The notes under the pieces: generated by a model
Told to the model about the DNA's origin: nothing
The model's database searches: none
What the model saw: the letters and a program-made list of their open reading frames with translations, nothing else
NCBI GenBank assembly: GCA_003454335.1
Contig: DMKK01000244.1
Coordinates: 5,030-31,812 of the forward strand
Source: Gammaproteobacteria bacterium
GTDB lineage: Bacteria > Pseudomonadota > Gammaproteobacteria > UBA9214
Length of the DNA stretch: 26,783 bases
Reading direction: 5' to 3'
Shown: piece by piece, positions 1-9,384 of the stretch
Position numbering within the stretch: position 1 is the stretch's first letter
Layout: each line of letters begins with the position of its first letter
Translations under genes and position numbers: made by a program

Positions 1-354
1 GTGCTGTTCCTGTGGACGCCCCCCCACTTCTGGAGCCTGGCATTCAAGTACCGGGATGACTATGCAAAGGTAGGAGTGCCGATGTTACCGGTTGTGGTTA
101 ATGAACAAACCGCAGCCTATATCATCCTCGGGCACACAGTGCTGCTGGCAGGGCTCTCGCTGCTGCCGGTGATGTATGGTTTGGGATGGATCTATTTTTT
201 GGGCGCTGCAAGCGGCGGCGCCTGGTTTGTATGGACCAGCATCGCGCTGGCGCGTAACCCGTCTCCCGAGACGGCCATGACCAACTTCCACGCCTCGTTG
301 CTGCAACTGAGCCTGCTGTTGATCGCCGCCATTCTGGATGCCTGGCTGATCTAA
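1..354 (+). CDS. cyoE: Protoheme IX farnesyltransferase (heme o synthase), C-terminal part; truncated by the window edge
   Basis: [29 protein letters not shown] is the characteristic CyoE/CtaB/COX10 motif, followed by hydrophobic helices and the F..S..QL terminal segment. Confidence 0.93.
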
Positions 355-473: not shown

Positions 474-580
474 CATTTAATAATCGGGTCCTTTGCTTTA
501 GCCGCATTAACCACCGCGCATTACTATCAAGACGTAGCGTTATATAATTAGAATATTACCTGATATGAAATTTGAGACTT

Positions 581-1480
581 ATGATTACCACCAGTAACAA
601 AACACCCGCGTACCTCCTGCTCTTCATGGGCCTGCTCTTCATGGGCAGTGCTGTTGCGGTCGAGGAACATGCACATGAAATGGAGGCAATCACGACGGAA
701 CCCATGCAGGATCACGATCCCGCCATGCACCAGCATGAAAAGGGCGCGGACTATAACGAAAAGGCCGCCCTTGCCCTGAGTCAGGCGGCCATGGGACAGA
801 CGGTTGGCGATTACGACTTCCTGGACGGCAGTGGCAAACAAATAACGCTGGAATCCATGCGCGGTAAACCGGTGCTGATCAGCCTGATCTACACCAGCTG
901 CTACCATATCTGTCCAACGGTCACGACCAACCTGGAAAAAATCGTCGAGATTGCGCGCGACGCCCTCGGTGATGACAGTTTTTCAGTACTGACCATTGGC
1001 TTCGACACCCCGAACGATACCCCGGACCGGATGCGGCTGTTTGCCAAACAGCGCAACATTGACATCAACAACTGGCATTTTGTCAGTGCCAGCGCCGCGA
1101 CCATGAAAGACCTGGCCCAAGACCTGGGCTTCAGTTATTTCAGTACGGGCAAGGGCTTTGACCATATGATCCAGGCCACGCTGATCGACGCAGAGGGCAA
1201 GATCTACCGGCAAATTTACGGCATGGCCCCCGAACCACCCGCCCTGGTGGAACCCCTCAAGGAAATACTCTATGGCAAACAGGTGGCTGCTACACCGATC
1301 GAGGGCTGGATAAACAATATAAAGCTGTTTTGCACCGTATACGATCCAGCCACAGGCAGGTATCATTTCGACTACTCCTTATTTATCGCCCTCGGCGTCG
1401 GTCTGCTGCTGCTTGGCGGGACCGCCTGGTTTATTGTCAGTGCCTGGCGCAAGTCGCCAGCGCCCGGATCGGTAAAATAA
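581..1480 (+). CDS. SCO1/SenC-family copper chaperone with C-terminal membrane anchor
   Basis: CxxxC (SCYHICP), downstream His (FDHMIQ), thioredoxin-like SCO pattern (VLTIGFDTPNDTPDRM), N-terminal signal/TM, His/Met-rich segment, C-terminal TM; ATG at 581 preferred over TTG 572. Confidence 0.9.
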   Translation: MITTSNKTPAYLLLFMGLLFMGSAVAVEEHAHEMEAITTEPMQDHDPAMHQHEKGADYNEKAALALSQAAMGQTVGDYDFLDGSGKQITLESMRGKPVLISLIYTSCYHICPTVTTNLEKIVEIARDALGDDSFSVLTIGFDTPNDTPDRMRLFAKQRNIDINNWHFVSASAATMKDLAQDLGFSYFSTGKGFDHMIQATLIDAEGKIYRQIYGMAPEPPALVEPLKEILYGKQVAATPIEGWINNIKLFCTVYDPATGRYHFDYSLFIALGVGLLLLGGTAWFIVSAWRKSPAPGSVK

Positions 1481-1505: not shown

Positions 1506-3077
1506 ATGAGCGGCTTGCGTACTGTTGCCAAGGCAGCCTTTGAATCCGTCGAGAATTTTTTCGACCGGGCCTTCGGTCCAGAGTTAAATCCCATGCACCA
1601 GCTGGGCGCACTTGGCTGGTTCTTTTACTGGATTGTCATTGTCAGCGGCGTCTATCTGTATATCTTTTTCGACACCGGCATTCACCAGGCCTATGAATCC
1701 CTGGAATACATAACCAACGTGCAGTGGTATGCCGCGGGCGTCATGCGCAGCCTGCACCGCTATGCATCTGACGCCCTGATCATCGTCATGATACTGCACC
1801 TGGTGCGCGAATTTGTCATGGACCGCTACCGGGGTGCCCGCTGGTTTTCCTGGTTTACCGGGGTGCCCCTGCTGTGGTTCGTATTTGCCTGCGGCATCAC
1901 CGGCTACTGGATGGTCTGGGACGTACTGGCCCAGTACATTGCCATCACCACCACGGAGTGGCTCGACACCCTGGGCATCTTTGGTGAAACGATTGCCCGG
2001 AATTTCCTGAATCCTGACATCCTCAGCGGCCGTTTCTTTACTCTCATGGTGTTCATTCACATTGCCGTGCCGCTGTTCCTGCTGCTGGCCATGTGGATTC
2101 ACATCCAGCGTCAGAACTATGCCAAGGTAAACCCGCCGAAGGGACTCGCTATTGGTACCCTGGGCATGCTGCTGGTACTGTCATTTATCAAACCGGCTGT
2201 CAGCCAGCCCCCGGCAGACCTGAGTATTGTGCCGGCAGTCATCGACCTTGACTGGTTTTACCTGGCGGCCTACCCCTTGCTCGATATCATTCCCGGGCTG
2301 ACCATGTGGGCAATCGCCGTGGGCGGCTCCCTGTTACTGGCGCTCCTGCCCTGGCTGCCACCCCGTCGCCGCGAGGCAGCAGCCGTGGTTGACCTCGACA
2401 ACTGCAACGGTTGCGGCCGCTGCGTGGATGACTGCCCGTTTACCGCAGTAATCCTTCAGCAGCGCACGGATGACACCGCTTTTTCGGAAGAGGCCATTGT
2501 CAACAGTAGCCTGTGCACCAGTTGCGGCATCTGCGTAGGCGCCTGCCCGACGTCCACCCCCTTCCGGCGCACCTCCGAACTGGTTCCGGGCATCGACCTG
2601 CCGGATCAGGGCATGCAGGCCTTGCGTGATGATGTCCTTGCGGCAGCGGCCAAACTGTCCGGAGAGACACGCGTCATTGTTTTCGGCTGCAAGAACGGCC
2701 CCGACCTGCAGCGGCTCAACGGACCCGCTGTTGCCGCCATGGAGCTGCAGTGCATTGGTATGCTGCCACCCTCCTTTGTCGATTTTCTCATCACCCGCCA
2801 TCACGTGGATGGGATCTTCCTGACGGGCTGTACCCTGGGAGACTGTCACAATCGGCTTGGCAACAAGTGGACAGAGCAGCGACTGGCCGGGGAGCGTGAC
2901 CCCTACCTGCGCGAGCGCGTGCCACGCGAACGCATCGGCAAATTCTGGGCCGGCCTGACCCACAACAAACGCCTGTCACAGGAAGTGGCCGCGTTCCAGG
3001 AACGGATCAAGGGACTCCCGCCTTACCATCGTCCGTCTCGCAAGCCGTCCGGTCAACAGCCCGCGGAGAGCAGCTAA
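1506..3077 (+). CDS. Fusion: cytochrome b/b6 N-terminal domain + 2x[4Fe-4S] ferredoxin + MvhD/FlpD-like Fe-S domain
   Basis: Heme b His pairs in RSLHRYASD..ILHLVR and FIHIAVP..WIHIQ; CNGCGRCVDDCP and CTSCGICVGACP; C-terminal FGC..LQCIGMLPPSFVD..DGIFLTGCTLGDCH..GN matches the MvhD pattern. Confidence 0.88.
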   Translation: MSGLRTVAKAAFESVENFFDRAFGPELNPMHQLGALGWFFYWIVIVSGVYLYIFFDTGIHQAYESLEYITNVQWYAAGVMRSLHRYASDALIIVMILHLVREFVMDRYRGARWFSWFTGVPLLWFVFACGITGYWMVWDVLAQYIAITTTEWLDTLGIFGETIARNFLNPDILSGRFFTLMVFIHIAVPLFLLLAMWIHIQRQNYAKVNPPKGLAIGTLGMLLVLSFIKPAVSQPPADLSIVPAVIDLDWFYLAAYPLLDIIPGLTMWAIAVGGSLLLALLPWLPPRRREAAAVVDLDNCNGCGRCVDDCPFTAVILQQRTDDTAFSEEAIVNSSLCTSCGICVGACPTSTPFRRTSELVPGIDLPDQGMQALRDDVLAAAAKLSGETRVIVFGCKNGPDLQRLNGPAVAAMELQCIGMLPPSFVDFLITRHHVDGIFLTGCTLGDCHNRLGNKWTEQRLAGERDPYLRERVPRERIGKFWAGLTHNKRLSQEVAAFQERIKGLPPYHRPSRKPSGQQPAESS

Positions 3078-3081
3078 AATC

Positions 3082-3585
3082 ATGGCTAGCATCTTTCAAT
3101 ACATCGGTCAGGCAATCGCCTATACACTGTTTGCTGTGTTCGTAGGCTACTTTGCCACCAAACCCGCCTATACCAACTTCCCACCGGACAAGGCACAGAT
3201 CAAGCTCAGTTTCGGCCATGCCGGCGAACACGCGACCGAATGCCGGCGCCTGACACAAGAGGAGCTGAACCAGTTGGCGCCCAACATGCGCCGTCCACTT
3301 GACTGTCCGCGTGGACGGCTGCCGGTACTGATCGAGCTGGAACTGGATGGCGAGCTGCTCTACAGTGAAGCATTACCACCCTCGGGCCTGGCAGGAGACG
3401 GCGTCTCTACTGCCTATAAAACATTTGCCGTAGACCCCGGCCAGCACCAGCTGGTTGCCCGGCTGCGCGACAGCAATCGCACCGAAGGTTTTGATTATGA
3501 GAAGACGTCCGAGATTACACTGTCACCGCAACAAAACTTTGTAGTTGATTTTCACCCGTCCAGGGACGGGTTCCTGTTTTTGTGA
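3082..3585 (+). CDS. Membrane-anchored hypothetical protein, probable partner of the cytochrome b fusion
   Basis: Starts 4 nt after the upstream stop; N-terminal TM helix; two Cys (ECRR, DCPR) in a soluble domain; normal codon usage. Confidence 0.8.
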   Translation: MASIFQYIGQAIAYTLFAVFVGYFATKPAYTNFPPDKAQIKLSFGHAGEHATECRRLTQEELNQLAPNMRRPLDCPRGRLPVLIELELDGELLYSEALPPSGLAGDGVSTAYKTFAVDPGQHQLVARLRDSNRTEGFDYEKTSEITLSPQQNFVVDFHPSRDGFLFL

Positions 3586-3592
3586 GGCTGTC

Positions 3593-3985
3593 ATGGTACT
3601 GATTGAATGGAAAAAGGAGTTCGAGGTAGGCGTACCCGATGTCGATCACGAGCATCAGGAGATCATCGACCTTATCAATAAGCTGCATGACGCCATGCGC
3701 GGTGAACATGCAACCATTTCCGTGATGGACTTCCTGGGCGAAATCTACGCGCATGTCTCGGCACACTTTGCGCTTGAAGAAAAAATCATGCGAACCAAAA
3801 GGTATGACCAGTATACGGATCATAAGGCAGACCATGAACGACTGCTTGATGAGCTGCGCGACATTATGGATGACTACGAAGAAAACGCCTACTTCAGCGA
3901 CGAGGAATTTGCCGGCCATGTCGAGCGCTGGTTCACCGAACACTTCAAGACAAAGGATGCACGCTTGCATAAGCACCTTGGGTAA
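3593..3985 (+). CDS. Bacteriohemerythrin (single-domain, di-iron)
   Basis: W....VG...VDHEH, HFALEE, HKADH and HFKTKD ligand motifs; ATG at 3593 after GAGG. Confidence 0.92.
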   Translation: MVLIEWKKEFEVGVPDVDHEHQEIIDLINKLHDAMRGEHATISVMDFLGEIYAHVSAHFALEEKIMRTKRYDQYTDHKADHERLLDELRDIMDDYEENAYFSDEEFAGHVERWFTEHFKTKDARLHKHLG

Positions 3986-4002
3986 CTATTCACCGGTACA
4001 TC

Positions 4003-4058
4003 TGTAGGGCCGAATTTACTCGGCCAATTCCGACCGGTCGAATAAATTCGCCTCTGCA
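4003..4058. repeat. GTAG-family REP-like palindrome
   Basis: TGTAGGGCCGAATTTACTCGGCC...GGTCGAATAAATTCGCCTCTGCA: two imperfect palindromic units in inverted arrangement, intergenic. Confidence 0.65.
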
Positions 4059-4119
4059 GTTATTCCTCTATTCGTGATTTTGCAGGGACGGTTTTTAAAT
4101 TATTCAGAGCTTCCCTAGT

Positions 4120-4599
4120 ATGTTCTCCGCATCCCCCCGTACCCTGAAGATTCTGGCTGCCCTGCTCTGGTACAGCGGCGCCATCATTCTGCTGACCAAG
4201 GGAACCACCCTGCTGCTTGAAGCTGATGCACTGCAACCGGGACGCCACTGGACATGGCTGACCGTCATTCTGGGGCTGTCCATTGGCGTGCTGAAGATAA
4301 AATTCATATTCCGCCGGGCTTGTCAGAAGAACCTCACGAGAATATCGCTTCTCAGTGAACCAAAAATATGGCAGTTTTACCGACCCGGATTCCTGTTGTT
4401 TCTGGCCGCCATGATTATTATCGGCTCGACCCTGTCCAGGATGGCGCATGGCAACTATCCATTCCTGATAGCCATGGCCGTACTGGATTTCAGTCTTGCC
4501 ACGGCATTGTTCGGCAGCAGCTACCTGTTCTGGCAACAACAGGCCTTTAAAAAAAGCTGTAGATCAGAAACTCCAATCAACGGAACAGATTCAAAATGA
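4120..4599 (+). CDS. Hypothetical inner-membrane protein (about 4 TM)
   Basis: 159-aa hydrophobic ORF; ATGA overlap with the next gene suggests translational coupling. Confidence 0.75.
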   Translation: MFSASPRTLKILAALLWYSGAIILLTKGTTLLLEADALQPGRHWTWLTVILGLSIGVLKIKFIFRRACQKNLTRISLLSEPKIWQFYRPGFLLFLAAMIIIGSTLSRMAHGNYPFLIAMAVLDFSLATALFGSSYLFWQQQAFKKSCRSETPINGTDSK

Positions 4600-5990
4600 G
4601 CATTGATCACTATAGCGATAGCGAAACCACCAACAAACTGGCACTGGAAATGCCGGGTGAACGGATGCGCCGCCTGACCACTGGCTGGTTGTTGCTGGCG
4701 CTGGGTTCACTGGTGGTTGGTGGACTGCTGACGATCGTGATCGTCCTGTCCCGCACACCCTATGTGCAGGATATTTTTCCCTGGGTCGACCTGTTCCATA
4801 CTGCGCTCGTGGTCCATGTTGATTTGACCGTACTGGTCTGGTTCCTGGGCATGGCCGGCGTTATCTGGAGTGTTAACAGTCAAAGCAGCTGCCTCCGCTG
4901 CGGTTGGGTAGCGTTATTCCTCTGTGCTACGGGCTCCATCATCATTTCCCTGTCGCCGTTTCTGGGATCGGCCAGCCCCTTGATGATCAACTATATTCCA
5001 ATCCTGGACGATCCCCTGTTTTTTTCGGGATTAATCATATTCGGGAGCGGCTTTCTCGCGCTGGTACTGCGCGGGCTGTTTTTTTCCCGCCCGATCGGCA
5101 TGCGTGTCACCGGACAGGGTGCCTTGCGTTTTGGCTTGTTTTCGGCTCTCATTTCCGCGGTGACTGCACTGGGTGCACTGCTTGGTTCCTGGCTTGGCAT
5201 ACCGGCATCAATACAGGGCGAGTATTACTATGAGCTGTTGTTCTGGGGCGGCGGACATACCCTGCAGTTCGTCCATATCCAGCTGATGCTGGTCTGCTGG
5301 CTGTGGCTGGCTACCGAGTCCGGAATTGCCTCCAGGCTAACACCGCGAACAGTGTTGTTGCTGTTCGCCTTTGGTCTGATCCCCGTGCTGATGACCCCTG
5401 TCGCCTATTTTATGTACGATGTGGGATCGGCAGAACATCAAATCGCGATGACCTGGTTGATGAAGTTCGGAGGTGGTCTGGCGGCACTGCCGATCAGTCT
5501 TGTTGTCATTTTCAATCTTGTCAATTCCTTGCAGAGCCCGGCAAGTCCCAGTCCGCAACGATCCGCGCTGTTTTCATCCATAATCCTGTTTGGGGTAGGC
5601 GGCATCATCGGTTTCATGATCGAGGGCAGTAACGTCACGGTCCCGGCCCACTACCATGGCTCCATTGTTGCCGTGACGCTGGCGTATATGGGTGTGACCT
5701 ATCACCTCCTGCCACTGCTCGGGTTCAGACGCCCCACAGGAAAGCTGGTTGTCCTGCAGCCCTGGATCTACGCCAGCGGACAGCTTATGCACGTAATCGG
5801 TCTGGCCTGGTCGGGCGGCTACGGCGTACAACGAAAAACCGCCGGAGGCGCCCAGGCCCTGGACGGGATAGAAAAGGTTGCCGGCATGGGATTAATGGGG
5901 CTGGGCGGTCTGGTTGCCGTTGTCGGTGGCATCCTGTTTCTGGTGATCGTCTTCAAGGCCATGTGGCCGGAAAAAAAGAACTCCCTGTAG
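4596..5990 (+). CDS. Heme-copper oxidase subunit I-like 12-TM protein lacking the CuB His-His motif
   Basis: About 12 hydrophobic segments; His in helix II (VVHVD), WGGGH in helix VI, AHYH in helix X, GVQRK in the G.PRR position; no HH after helix VII and Phe at the cross-link Tyr position (HTLQF vs HPEVY). Confidence 0.8.
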   Translation: MSIDHYSDSETTNKLALEMPGERMRRLTTGWLLLALGSLVVGGLLTIVIVLSRTPYVQDIFPWVDLFHTALVVHVDLTVLVWFLGMAGVIWSVNSQSSCLRCGWVALFLCATGSIIISLSPFLGSASPLMINYIPILDDPLFFSGLIIFGSGFLALVLRGLFFSRPIGMRVTGQGALRFGLFSALISAVTALGALLGSWLGIPASIQGEYYYELLFWGGGHTLQFVHIQLMLVCWLWLATESGIASRLTPRTVLLLFAFGLIPVLMTPVAYFMYDVGSAEHQIAMTWLMKFGGGLAALPISLVVIFNLVNSLQSPASPSPQRSALFSSIILFGVGGIIGFMIEGSNVTVPAHYHGSIVAVTLAYMGVTYHLLPLLGFRRPTGKLVVLQPWIYASGQLMHVIGLAWSGGYGVQRKTAGGAQALDGIEKVAGMGLMGLGGLVAVVGGILFLVIVFKAMWPEKKNSL

Positions 5991-6085
5991 GAGAGCAGCG
6001 TCGCCTACAAGGATGTAGGTGAGGGGCGTAAGCAGGACGCGGAAGCTTCCTCGCCGCGATTCGCGCCGGGGACGGAGCTCCTACA
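5986..6085. repeat. GTAG-family REP/BIME-like element
   Basis: Ends TGTAGGAG...CTCCTACA are inverted; internal GTAG/CTACA units and a CCGCGATTCGCG palindrome; lies between convergent genes. Confidence 0.7.
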
Positions 6086-6125
6086 ATATAAGTTTTACAC
6101 CGACTGGTTTACCGTAGAAGCCTGC

Positions 6126-6551
6126 TTAGGCTACGAAGAGATGAAATGCCATCAGGTAGATGATTACGCCGGTGATGGACACGTATAACCAGATCGGCAG
6201 TGTCCAGCGTGCAAGGCGCCGGTGGCGGGTGGTATTCCCCCTTATTGCCAGGCCTGCGGTAACCAGAACCAGCGGGAACAATACTGCGGCAAGGATCACA
6301 TGGGACGCAAGGATCGAAAAATAGACCGGACGGACAGCCCCGACCCCCGCAAACGGAATATTGCCGATTTTTGCATGGTAATAAAGATAAAAGACCATGA
6401 AGACAGTGGACACGAGCAACGCGCTCACCATGCAAATACGATGCGCCGCGGTGTTCTTTCGCCGCACAAAAAAATAACCCAGGCTCACCAGCGTTGCAGC
6501 CGTGGTATTGAGTATCGCGAGGAACGGCGGAATGACGGGAATGAGTTCCAT
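6126..6551 (-). CDS. DUF420 (YozB-like) membrane protein
   Basis: LN...A..L..GY..+RR....HR..M..A...S..F+..YL.YH and H..LA...+PL....H+R+ARWT.PIWLYVS+TG+++Y patterns. Confidence 0.9.
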   Translation of the reverse strand: MELIPVIPPFLAILNTTAATLVSLGYFFVRRKNTAAHRICMVSALLVSTVFMVFYLYYHAKIGNIPFAGVGAVRPVYFSILASHVILAAVLFPLVLVTAGLAIRGNTTRHRRLARWTLPIWLYVSITGVIIYLMAFHLFVA

Positions 6552-6647
6552 AAGAATTACGGATTATTACCGATTATCGAGTTCATGAATAGACAACCAT
6601 CCGCTCTCCCATCATGCTCGCTACGATTACCCAAGTCCGACAGGCCC

Positions 6648-7676
6648 CTACCCCAGGTAACGGCTGGCCTGTTTAAAAAAGTCGGGCCGCTCGGGCAGTT
6701 CACTGCGCAACAACCTTACCGGCAGGACAATCCTGCGCTCACCACTGGCCGAGAACAGCCCAATCAGCTGCAGATCGTTTGCAGGTATACTTGACGATGC
6801 ATCTGTCTTGATACCCATGGAATTCAGACGCATGTGCACTTCGTCCTGGTAAATCCAGTGCGCGGGCTGCGCCAGGACTTCGGCAAGTTGTTCAAGATTC
6901 CGTTCCAGCCCCCCGCTATCCCCACCAAGCTCCAGCAGTTCGGATTCCACTGCATCAATCTTTGCTGCCAGGCCAGCCAGATCCGGCGCCGGTTCTTCGC
7001 CATTCGAAAACATGGTTTCGAGGCCCCAGTCGCCAGCCTTCATGGCCTCGAGTTTTTTGTCCAGCAACCGCTGTTCGCGCTGCAGTTCCTGGCGCTTGCC
7101 GCGTGCACCCAGGATTTTTTCCAGTGCCAGCTTGAGCAAATAATCGAAAGCACGTTTCTTGAGTTCCAGGCGGGTTTCGGCTTCATTGTCGGCAGGACAT
7201 GCGAACCGGTGGTTGAAGAAACTGACGGAGACTTGCGCTACATCCCGCCGCACCTTGCCACCCTGTTGCTCCATACCGAGTATATTGCGTTCCTTCCACT
7301 CCAGGGTAAGCAGGCCGAAGATTTCATGGGGCGGGAGGCCGGACAGACCTTGCAGGTAATCGCTAATAGTACTGGATCCGCCCAGCATCTCCTGCAGATG
7401 ATCGTTTGACGCAAAAAAAGCGCGCAACCGAGGGTCGATGCTATAGCCTTGCCGGCTGAGTGGCACGGCTTCCGGCAAACCATCGATGAGCTCCATGACA
7501 TGCCTTACCGCCAGCTCGACGGGTTCGCGCAGCTGCTTGCGGTAATTGCCGAGCGCGCGCAGGCGCGGGTCTGTGCCCTCCACTGCCCGTTCGGTCGCCT
7601 GCTCGATCAGTACCTTGTCCAGTCCGCCGGACTTGCCTGTGTCAGGGGTAAACAGCGAACTCAAAAAATCCAGCAT
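6648..7676 (-). CDS. Hypothetical soluble protein with a central coiled-coil segment
   Basis: 342-aa ORF with AGAGACAG upstream of ATG; charged helical stretch ELQREQRLLDKKLEAMK; no recognised domain. Confidence 0.75.
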   Translation of the reverse strand: MLDFLSSLFTPDTGKSGGLDKVLIEQATERAVEGTDPRLRALGNYRKQLREPVELAVRHVMELIDGLPEAVPLSRQGYSIDPRLRAFFASNDHLQEMLGGSSTISDYLQGLSGLPPHEIFGLLTLEWKERNILGMEQQGGKVRRDVAQVSVSFFNHRFACPADNEAETRLELKKRAFDYLLKLALEKILGARGKRQELQREQRLLDKKLEAMKAGDWGLETMFSNGEEPAPDLAGLAAKIDAVESELLELGGDSGGLERNLEQLAEVLAQPAHWIYQDEVHMRLNSMGIKTDASSSIPANDLQLIGLFSASGERRIVLPVRLLRSELPERPDFFKQASRYLG

Positions 7677-7813
7677 CAGTGTCTGTCTCGTCTTTATTCA
7701 GAGGAGATTGAGGTTACCCGAAGCACGGAAGCACTGGCAACAGCAATCAGGGAATCGCTATGCATTCATACGGATTTTCTGCAGCGGGTCAGGAGCAGTT
7801 CGCCACCTCCACC

Positions 7814-9121
7814 TTAATCCGCCTCCATTGCAGCAATACTGGATCGGGTGCCGGCGTATAGCAGTGCCGCATTGATCATCAGGAATGCCAGCCAGCCAAA
7901 GTCCAGCAACAATGCCAGCCCGGCAATGCCCGTCAGCGGGCCGTATATGACCGCACCCAGCATGGCCGCAATGGCCACCACGTGGATTCGCAACAACCAT
8001 AGCGACCGGGCCGGGCTGATAAAACCATGCATATTGGGCAGGCTCCTGATCGCCCTGATATTGGCCGAACAGTGTCGCTGCAGATGAAGAAAGGCAAGAA
8101 ATGGCACTATCTTCTGCAACATCCCCATGATAATGGAGCAAGCAAACCCGAGGACCATCAACACGCCCGCCAGCAACACCCCCCTTGCAGGGCTCACGAC
8201 TGAACCGGCAATGTCCGGCAACAGGAAAACCAGCCAGAACAGCAACACCGCAAGGATCAGGCAGGACAATCCCAACTGCCAGAAACGCACAGATACATCC
8301 ATCAACCTGCGTTTTCTGTGTTGTAACAAACGCAGGCTGAACCCGGCATAAACCAGCACCGCCACACCAATAACGATAACCAGCCCGGCTACCGCCACAG
8401 GCGTCTGCAGCAACGCGAGCAGCAGCAACCCCGTAAAGATCACCAGTGGTATAAACCGGGTCAACCTGGACGGGTAGTCGGGTGTGACCTGAAACATCGG
8501 TATAACCTGAAAGCTGATACCCATGATCAGGATCAGAACCCAACCGAGCAAAGCCCAGCTGACATGGAGCATTGTCAGGCTCAATGGGGATTCAAGCGGG
8601 TAGAGATAAGTCAGGGCACGGTAACAACCCAGGCCGATGGTGACCAGCAAGGCGGCGATTGCCAGCCGCATGGCATGGATACTGTCACCACCGGCGATGT
8701 TCGTGACGAGTTTGCTGCCAATGGCAACAATAAATCCGGCCAGGGCCATGGCCAGCAAGACAACGGCAACACCCAGCAGGAAATACTCACGAAACACAAA
8801 GCCTGCAGACAGACACAATACAGCGGCAACCATCAACAGATGCACAGCGAACGCAAGCGGAGTGCCGCCAGGGACTCGTTCACCACTGAGTACCGGCAAC
8901 AACTGGAACAGTGCCCCCAGCATGGTCATCGTCATAAAACCCAGCGTGAGCAGATGCGTCAGCGCTATTAACGCCGGATTCCAGTGGCTCGTCCACAGCT
9001 CCGAACCGCTGAACAGCAGCACCATTGCCGCCAGCATGCCGAAGCACGGTGCCGTCAGAAAAAACCGCAAGGGGATATGAATGGGTGGCAAGCTGTCCAG
9101 AGTAAGACCGGACATACGCAT
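7814..9121 (-). CDS. Polytopic membrane protein, NnrS-like/His-containing, associated with DUF2249
   Basis: About 12 TM; intramembrane His motifs (ALTHLLTLGF, MLHVSWALLGW..MG+SFQVIPMF, LQKIVPFL..LHL); TAATG overlap with the upstream gene. Confidence 0.75.
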   Translation of the reverse strand: MRMSGLTLDSLPPIHIPLRFFLTAPCFGMLAAMVLLFSGSELWTSHWNPALIALTHLLTLGFMTMTMLGALFQLLPVLSGERVPGGTPLAFAVHLLMVAAVLCLSAGFVFREYFLLGVAVVLLAMALAGFIVAIGSKLVTNIAGGDSIHAMRLAIAALLVTIGLGCYRALTYLYPLESPLSLTMLHVSWALLGWVLILIMGISFQVIPMFQVTPDYPSRLTRFIPLVIFTGLLLLALLQTPVAVAGLVIVIGVAVLVYAGFSLRLLQHRKRRLMDVSVRFWQLGLSCLILAVLLFWLVFLLPDIAGSVVSPARGVLLAGVLMVLGFACSIIMGMLQKIVPFLAFLHLQRHCSANIRAIRSLPNMHGFISPARSLWLLRIHVVAIAAMLGAVIYGPLTGIAGLALLLDFGWLAFLMINAALLYAGTRSSIAAMEAD

Positions 9122-9384
9122 TACGGGGCACCCCTGAACAAACGACTGATCATGTCCGTGTCCTGTTTATGCCAGATCAGAATATCGTATTTGGCGGTCT
9201 CGCCAGGCTGTGCCCGGTATTCAAGCTTGCGCTCATTGCAATAATCAAACAGGGGATAGGGAATCATCCGGTGTGCCATGCGCAGATACTCACCCGGCCG
9301 CAGCTCTGCAAGCAGCGACAGCGCCTGCACAAAAGGCATGGGTGCCGCCATCTCACTGGCATCGAGAAATTTTTCATCCAGCAT
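9121..9384 (-). CDS. DUF2249 / TusA-like small protein
   Basis: LDASEMAAPMPF..AL..L..L.PGEYL.M.H...PYPL pattern; GGAGA RBS before GTG/ATG; start trimmed from ORF 9474 to 9384. Confidence 0.75.
   Translation of the reverse strand: MLDEKFLDASEMAAPMPFVQALSLLAELRPGEYLRMAHRMIPYPLFDYCNERKLEYRAQPGETAKYDILIWHKQDTDMISRLFRGAP

Follow-up and report, generated by a model that had tools for sequence, protein, structure and literature searches.

A haem-copper oxidase subunit I paralogue without the canonical three-histidine metal site, encoded in eNOR gene clusters

To our knowledge, all characterised members of the haem-copper oxidase (HCO) superfamily are terminal reductases that combine a haem with a second metal. 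The eNOR of Rhodothermus marinus reduces NO and contains haem A_s at each of its two haem sites, and ctaA is part of many eNOR operons (PMC11214002); a Gln in place of the cross-linked Tyr is diagnostic for eNOR (PMC8756737). In gNOR, one metal-site His is replaced by Asp, and gNOR was called the first HCO family to do so; a family without two metal-site His is not described in that work (PMC11214002). The stretch of DNA analysed here, hereafter the window, comprises 26,783 nucleotides of a gammaproteobacterial assembly (G000:C86:5030-31812, contig DMKK01000244.1) and encodes, at positions 4596-5990 of the forward strand, a 464-aa COX1-like protein which, together with its family, we call HCOL. 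Judged from its sequence, HCOL is an HCO subunit I paralogue with three haem ligands and without the canonical three-His CuB/FeB site. The family is widespread, mis-annotated and in print once, by label only. Reviews of oxidase assembly make no mention of an HCOL-like protein, and literature searches for the family returned just one informal label, 'eNOR scaffold protein', given to IMG gene 2878407321 of Ferrigenium straubiae, the function of which was stated to be unknown (bioRxiv 10.64898/2026.01.22.701106).

The HCOL reading frame consists of 464 codons with no internal stop, and its ATG overlaps the stop codon of the preceding open reading frame (ORF) as ATGA. Pfam COX1 (PF00115) matches the protein weakly (49.3 bits versus a cut-off of 34.8), and none of the NCBIfam models does. 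Searched against solved structures, the single sequence retrieved nothing relevant; only the family profile, constructed from 42 diverse relatives, reached the B-family oxidases (Thermus ba3, 7DEG) with E-values of about 1e-10 to 1e-11. An AlphaFold2 model built on the family alignment (pLDDT 91.2, pTM 0.92) has 12 long helices, with helix VII ending at residue 273, and its best solved match is the subunit I of ba3 with a TM-score of 0.75 and 17-18% identity (Foldseek). The family profile scored 140-160 bits for eNOR subunit I versus 46 bits for ba3. In a maximum-likelihood tree calculated from HCOL, eNOR subunit I and A-type subunits, HCOL was monophyletic (support 99) and joined eNOR subunit I, distant from the A-type subunits. 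By these comparisons, and among the families sampled in the tree, HCOL and eNOR subunit I are sister groups. Both the model and the phylogeny had been proposed in a preliminary description of the window, made from the DNA letters alone.

The residues of HCOL considered in the following are given below with their positions in the window; conservation was counted over 349 near-full-length relatives.

4596-5990 (+): HCOL, 12-helix HCO subunit I paralogue (translation, Pfam, AlphaFold2, conservation, dN/dS)
4815-4817 (+): H74 in helix II, predicted axial ligand of the low-spin haem, opposite ba3 H72; His in 347/349
5256-5270 (+): H221-T-L-Q224-F225 in helix VI; H221 in 349/349, Q224 in 348/349, F225 in 311/349
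5403-5408 (+): A270-Y271, at the positions of the eNOR His-His metal ligands (three-family alignment)
5460-5462 (+): M289 in helix VIII; Met in 345/349, A/F in eNOR and F/Q in A-type at the same column
5649-5657 (+): H352-Y-H354 in helix X (PAHYHG), opposite ba3 H384/H386; His in 348/349 and 345/349
5832-5837 (+): R413-K414 (GVQRK), counterpart of the haem-propionate Arg-Arg pair (profile and three-family alignments)

The haem ligands H74, H352 and H354 are at least 99% conserved, and haem binding is predicted from the alignment, with H352 as the proximal ligand of the high-spin haem and H354 as the second ligand of the low-spin haem. HCOL would hence bind two haems, probably of the haem A type in the clade of the window protein. 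The only CuB/FeB ligand left is H221 (codon 5256-5258), opposite ba3 H233, in the helix VI motif FWGGGH221TLQF225. Residue F225 aligns with ba3 Y237, the position of the cross-linked Tyr in oxidases and of the diagnostic Gln in eNOR. The end of helix VII reads PVAYFMYDVGS and carries no His. In the family profile alignment ba3 H282/H283 stand opposite residues 272/273, and in a three-family MAFFT alignment of HCOL with 15 eNOR and 12 A-type subunit I sequences the His-His pair of eNOR falls on A270-Y271 and that of the A-type on 271/272; under either alignment residues 270-273 of HCOL contain no His. None of the 349 relatives has His at both eNOR His-His positions, Ile/Ala followed by Tyr being usual, and the pair is present in all 15 eNOR and all 12 A-type sequences aligned. 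The loss is therefore a fixed character of the family rather than chance or decay, and by alignment the canonical three-His site is gone throughout HCOL. From these residues we infer that HCOL cannot be a canonical O2 or NO reductase. These results uphold the preliminary description in its central point, a paralogue that keeps the haem ligands and has lost the CuB/FeB site, including all motifs quoted and the Phe in place of the cross-linked Tyr. Its premise of six invariant His throughout the O2 and NO reductases is outdated by the Asp of gNOR (PMC11214002), and the case that it had kept in mind, orthologues with the His-His pair next to a decaying copy, does not apply.

Beyond the ligands, R53, N132, Y133, E213, T286, S328, M365 and Q388 are, like H74, H221, Q224, M289, H352, H354, R413 and K414, conserved in 89-100% of the relatives. 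M289 may face the place of the lost metal or act as a ligand to a metal bound in it. A minority of the distant relatives reads T-x-H-M or T-H-H-M at the start of helix VIII, and therefore a smaller, different metal site around the invariant H221 and M289 may exist. A shifted His-His pair that rebuilds the site, considered in the preliminary description, is absent from the window protein, which has W287-L288 there. The same description had named further His residues which might rebuild a metal site. H227 and H281 are poorly conserved (His in just 196/349 and 222/349 relatives) and were dismissed. H399 is found in 318/349 but lies in helix XI and is replaced in two clades, one carrying a TPR fusion and one basal, and was likewise rejected. 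In canonical enzymes, helix XI runs beside the low-spin haem rather than the CuB site.

Public records name relatives of HCOL 'cbb3-type cytochrome c oxidase subunit I', a name which, along with the weak Pfam COX1 match, is the ground for regarding the protein as a true CcoN or as a decaying oxidase copy. The preliminary description had already doubted the annotation, correctly: CcoN is ruled out by the missing NCBIfam match, by eNOR and ba3 (B-family) as nearest relatives and by the absence of ccoO and ccoP from the Pfam/NCBIfam annotation of the window. Decay is opposed by the absence of the His-His pair from 349/349 relatives, by the detection of the presumed Ferrigenium counterpart as a protein and by purifying selection, with a ratio of nonsynonymous to synonymous substitution rates (dN/dS) of 0.15 against an 81%-identical orthologue and of 0.08-0.12 against more distant ones, for which dS is saturated. 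Furthermore, an intact gene is present in at least 597 species genomes, counted in a scan of one genome per species. We consider a CcoN or a decaying copy to be a negligible explanation. The use of this name or of K02274 for HCOL inflates oxidase counts in metagenomic surveys.

The extent of the family is also evident from a word-indexed protein search, in which 6,553 HCOL relatives were scored among 8,000 candidates, and from an exhaustive search that yielded 1,486 clusters at 50% identity. The 80 loci returned by the species scan derive nearly all from Gamma- and Betaproteobacteria, together with one Nitrospirota metagenome-assembled genome (MAG) and the cultured Noviherbaspirillum sp. ST 5-3 (NZ_CP176528, locus L093). 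The closest full-length relative (L065, CAWKAE010000009.1; 81% identity, same gene order) stems from a record titled 'uncultured Halobacteria archaeon'; this MAG is probably mislabelled or mis-binned, because its gene content looks gammaproteobacterial.

Compared with its described relatives, HCOL shares with eNOR subunit I the 12-helix core, the gene cluster, and the residues R53, Gln at +3 after the helix VI His, T286, S328, M365 and Q388. The helix VI motifs are H-S-S-Q-Q in eNOR and H-T-L-Q-F in HCOL, with only the +3 Gln in common. Unlike HCOL, eNOR subunit I possesses the His-His pair, the diagnostic Gln, polar helix VIII residues (S, Y, S, H, T; Gly, Ala or hydrophobic in HCOL), a 13-residue loop, an 8-residue loop before helix X and a C-terminal extension. 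We take the polar helix VIII residues to be the proposed proton channel of eNOR, and the loop before helix X to be the one which, in canonical enzymes, bears the Mg site and makes contact with subunit II. A CuA subunit II gene is located directly upstream of eNOR subunit I but not of HCOL. The subunit I of Thermus thermophilus ba3 (PDB 1EHK, 3S8F) resembles HCOL in that haem ligands and propionate pair align, and differs in its three-His CuB site, cross-linked Tyr, proton channel and CuA subunit II, at about 17% identity. Like gNOR, HCOL is a superfamily member with altered metal ligands; in gNOR, however, one His is exchanged for another ligating residue and the enzyme is predicted to be still a reductase, whereas in HCOL two His are replaced by Ile/Ala and Tyr.

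The gene surroundings were compared among 103 related loci, in which genes were labelled by BLAST against seed proteins. In the window and the contig upstream of it, the cluster runs from subunit II through eNOR subunit I, haem O synthase, SCO1, a cytochrome b-iron-sulphur (FeS)-FlpD fusion, a 167-aa protein, a hemerythrin and a 159-aa protein to HCOL:

Within 5 kb upstream of the window: CuA-type subunit II, first gene of the cluster, directly before eNOR subunit I
1.1 kb upstream of the window: eNOR subunit I, a 558-aa COX1 with the motifs H-S-S-Q-Q, A-H-H-L and H-F-H
1-354 (+): 3' end of haem O synthase (CtaB/CyoE; Pfam UbiA; TIGR01473, 230 bits versus a cut-off of 210); whole gene G000:C86:4547-5383
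572-1480 (+): SCO1/SenC copper chaperone (PF02630); SCO1 in 78/103 loci
1506-3077 (+): fusion of cytochrome b (N-terminal domain), 2x[4Fe-4S] ferredoxin and FlpD/MvhD (Pfam, NCBIfam); 76/103 loci
3082-3585 (+): 167-aa membrane-anchored protein P0273 without family match; 72/103 loci
3545-3985 (+): bacteriohemerythrin (NF033749, 100.8 bits); 16/103 loci, several times adjoining CtaA
4120-4599 (+): 159-aa hydrophobic membrane protein P0272 of no known family, its stop overlapping the HCOL start
6126-6551 (-): DUF420 (CtaM-like) membrane protein, convergent with HCOL (PF04238, E = 5e-39)

The 558-aa COX1 carries the Gln that is diagnostic for eNOR. The sole CuA subunit II gene of the cluster precedes it, four genes from HCOL, and the 159-aa and 167-aa genes directly upstream of HCOL have no cupredoxin match in Pfam. 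The haem O synthase, placed next to HCOL in the preliminary description, is not adjacent but four genes upstream (window 1-354), within the same cluster and on the same strand. The usual order in the related loci is (CtaA)-subunit II-eNOR I-haem O synthase-SCO1-cytochrome b-FeS-167-aa-HCOL-(DUF420/CtaA-like/second cytochrome b fusion), with haem O synthase in 66, eNOR subunit I in 60 and CtaA in 53 of the 103 loci; HCOL is a handy marker for such eNOR-type, N2O-producing clusters. DUF420 is located within about 2 kb of HCOL in nine of these loci. P0272 was rejected as a conserved partner, being found among the related loci only in the closest relative L066.

The association with genes of haem A synthesis extends beyond the eNOR clusters. 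In other clades HCOL is situated at the ctaA/ctaB end of A1-type (GHPEVY) or A2-type (SHPAVY) oxidase clusters, and in L063 it is divergent from a lone ctaA. Where eNOR clusters are split (L074, L077, L133, L076, L094 and L135), HCOL stays with CtaA and SCO1 and the 167-aa gene with the cytochrome b fusion. A gene of the CtaA superfamily (CtaA, divergent CtaA-like or DUF420) is found within 500 bp of HCOL in 25/103 loci and within 3 kb in 40/103, and it overlaps the 3' end of HCOL in several loci from Betaproteobacteria. One relative is a fusion of HCOL with haem O synthase (P0253/L009; TIGR01473, 251 bits) which directly follows an eNOR-type pair of subunits II and I. The CtaA-like genes that overlap HCOL encode proteins of about 300 aa (L093:11371-12282, L107:11364-12338, L130:11337-12209 and L131:11322-12269); the betaproteobacterial CtaA-like gene scores only 24-164 bits against the CtaA profile, and PF02628 reaches 68 bits in Noviherbaspirillum.

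Co-occurrence was determined in about 300 genomes sampled evenly across the class, a tally that takes in the three unpublished genomes G039, G141 and G296. HCOL was present in 23 genomes, eNOR in 16 and both in 14, leaving nine with HCOL and without eNOR. A CtaA match was found in 22 of the 23 HCOL genomes (two of them weak) versus 203 of the 300 overall, and in all five of five further HCOL genomes. The one HCOL genome without a COX15/CtaA match is the present, 72%-complete assembly, which encodes eNOR and an A-type COX1 (C129). Its CtaA gene lies probably in the unassembled part; in the closest HCOL-bearing relative CtaA is located about 30 kb away on the same contig, and a genome of the same genus also has CtaA. 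Since nearly all HCOL genomes contain CtaA, often in the same cluster, HCOL is no substitute for haem A synthase, and it has no homology with the PF02628 (CtaA/COX15) fold. When a complex between HCOL and its neighbour CtaA was predicted for the G219 pair, from separate alignments of the two chains and without controls, the score was 0.00, a result that speaks neither for nor against binding.

We favour the interpretation of HCOL as a haem-handling or maturation helper of haem-A-dependent enzymes, here of the eNOR encoded upstream, and give it about an even chance of being correct. HCOL would receive, hold, keep reduced or hand over the haem made by CtaB and CtaA, and the cytochrome b-FeS-FlpD and 167-aa proteins might supply or remove electrons. 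NifEN offers a functional analogy: it is a paralogue of a catalytic subunit which serves as cofactor scaffold and is encoded alongside cofactor-synthesis genes, and HCOL may act likewise. Surf1 and CtaM, accessory factors of haem-A oxidases encoded beside ctaA/ctaB, offer a further analogy (PMC9145763). None of the three is related to HCOL in sequence. HCOL is no mere replacement for Surf1 or DUF420/CtaM, whose genes accompany it in some loci. As such a helper, HCOL would be the first non-reductase branch of the HCO superfamily, with the metal site dropped and the haem pockets kept, and would bear on the delivery and insertion of haem A into oxidases and eNOR and on the maturation of eNOR at scarce oxygen. 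Among the roles suggested in the preliminary description, a haem-insertion chaperone, a haem O/A-linked enzyme and an electron-transfer subunit, the gene context favours the two haem-handling ones; HCOL may instead transfer electrons together with the cytochrome b-FeS protein.

The Ferrigenium gene provides the available expression data. It is annotated as COX1 (K02274) and follows eNOR II, eNOR I, haem O synthase, Sco1, the cytochrome b fusion and a hypothetical protein; the preprint uses the name as a label only and its ligands are not analysed there. This order recurs in most of the 103 loci and in the window taken together with the contig upstream of it, and in Gallionella loci that have it HCOL is about 50% identical to the window protein. 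From gene order, annotation and synteny in Gallionellaceae (L117, L125, L126, L129, L139, L140 and L143), we infer that the Ferrigenium gene is an HCOL. Its transcripts amounted to 73-387 transcripts per million (TPM), and under eNOR induction to 294-387 TPM versus about 2,100-9,200 for eNOR I; in the proteome its value was 28.0 versus 31.6 for eNOR I and II (10.64898/2026.01.22.701106). This lower expression fits a sub-stoichiometric accessory factor.

Several observations weigh against a helper function. H221, Q224, E213 and M289 are near-invariant in all clades, a constraint that a passive chaperone should hardly need and that may point to chemistry or the binding of a ligand. In most eNOR clusters the cytochrome b-FeS and 167-aa genes come immediately before HCOL, and a cytochrome b is fused to one relative; a redox complex would account just as well for both. 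The adjacency to ctaA and ctaB could in large part reflect mere membership in oxidase clusters. In two congeneric genomes (G032 and G244) HCOL is missing from the eNOR cluster and CtaA occupies its normal position, so HCOL is not required for making eNOR. R53, common to HCOL and eNOR, is conserved also in the TPR-fused clade found beside Ccs genes, where haem A is not expected. Lastly, the equation of the Ferrigenium gene with HCOL is by gene order and annotation and not by sequence.

Part of this evidence is accommodated by a separate membrane redox complex, in which HCOL would be the haem core and the cytochrome b-2[4Fe-4S]-FlpD fusion and the 167-aa protein its partners. Such a complex would be an electron wire, or an enzyme with a haem-only or His-Met-metal site acting on NO, O2, peroxide or an N-oxide, with periplasmic protons as in cNOR. 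The order cytochrome b-FeS, 167-aa, HCOL in most of the 103 loci, with the P0273 gene conserved directly upstream of HCOL in eNOR clusters, is in line with this idea, as are the fusion of cytochrome b with HCOL (P0122/L010), which is followed by nirS, and the invariant H221, Q224, E213, M289, N132 and Y133 around the former active site and on the outer face. The same applies to the NO-linked genes around the cluster (a Crp/Fnr regulator, hemerythrins, DUF2249 and NnrS) and to a relative whose cluster adjoins nirS and a radical-SAM gene. On the other hand, neither the cytochrome b fusion nor the 167-aa protein accompanies HCOL in A-type ctaA/ctaB clusters and in ResB-CcsA operons, and where eNOR clusters are split, the 167-aa gene goes with the cytochrome b fusion and HCOL with CtaA and SCO1. 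HCOL also lacks the polar residues of helix VIII and the loop preceding helix X, and under eNOR induction the transcripts of the Ferrigenium counterpart are about 6- to 24-fold less abundant than those of eNOR I. We regard such a complex as the main rival of the helper interpretation, though as somewhat unlikely.

The haem A genes around HCOL also invite a catalytic interpretation, in which HCOL would be a haem-modifying or -reducing enzyme and the first member of the HCO fold with a biosynthetic job. The former binuclear pocket would hold haem O or haem A as cargo or substrate, and HCOL would be an electron partner, or an oxygen-sparing isoenzyme or route, for haem A synthase. Electrons could pass via the low-spin haem, fed by the cytochrome b-FeS-FlpD protein, which would keep the pocket haem reduced or help to oxidise it. 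If true, this would explain how eNOR is loaded with haem A in denitrifiers when O2 is scarce, a puzzle raised in PMC11214002 and in the Ferrigenium preprint: eNOR needs haem A_s, CtaA needs O2 and the organisms denitrify. The fusion to haem O synthase, the overlapping or adjoining CtaA and CtaA-like genes and the hemerythrin genes that adjoin CtaA in relatives are compatible with it. It is opposed by the canonical CtaA in every adequately complete HCOL genome, often in the same cluster, so that no enzyme is being replaced, by the lack of any sequence relation to known haem-modifying enzymes and by the clade with TPR and Ccs genes, which has no haem A link. A biosynthetic enzyme appears doubtful to us.

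In this TPR-fused clade, distinct and known from five representatives, the two loci read (L145 and L146) place HCOL directly after a CcsA-type cytochrome c assembly gene, with no eNOR or haem A link. In L146:2-6880, ResB and a 789-aa multihaem cytochrome c are encoded upstream and a CcmH/CycH-like TPR protein downstream of the fused HCOL. R53, which we suspected to be the counterpart of the A-type Arg bonding the formyl group of haem a, is weakened as a haem A marker by its invariance in this clade; moreover, no Arg of the A-type sequences is aligned there.

The retained high-spin haem site could alternatively bind a gas, HCOL then being a membrane haem protein that senses or buffers NO or O2 and tunes or serves eNOR or CtaA. 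On the distal side, an invariant His and Gln together with a Tyr in about 80% of the relatives would suit this purpose, and hemerythrins, the Crp/Fnr regulator and NnrS are encoded nearby. Yet the relatives examined neither contain nor are fused to an output or signalling domain, the 12 helices and two haems go far beyond the needs of a sensor, and the gene contexts are biosynthetic and not regulatory. We judge a gas-binding role very improbable.

Hemerythrin genes stand directly next to ctaA in several relatives, including L147:12966-14458, L148:6960-8479, L074 and L077. One may speculate that the hemerythrin delivers or buffers O2 for haem A synthesis, because CtaA needs O2 while these organisms denitrify. 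Many betaproteobacterial eNOR clusters (L103, L107, L109, L117, L119, L125, L130 and others) contain a second cytochrome b fusion of about 640 aa, of which only the cytochrome b part matches the fusion in the window; it is probably the counterpart of the 'Cytbc1CCC-like protein 1' of Ferrigenium with FAD/NADH domains.

Farther downstream in the window, two ORFs of 342 and 435 aa without Pfam or NCBIfam match (6648-7676 and 7814-9121, both on the reverse strand) are located between the DUF420 gene and the DUF2249-hemerythrin-Crp/Fnr group, and their homologues are found in only one or two of the related loci. At the other end, a 503-aa ORF running off the contig end (L008:3-1511, reverse strand; G000:C86:3-1511) is divergent from the eNOR cluster. 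It encodes a COX1 domain preceded by a fused cytochrome c domain (residues 57-96) and represents the third HCO-type gene on the contig.

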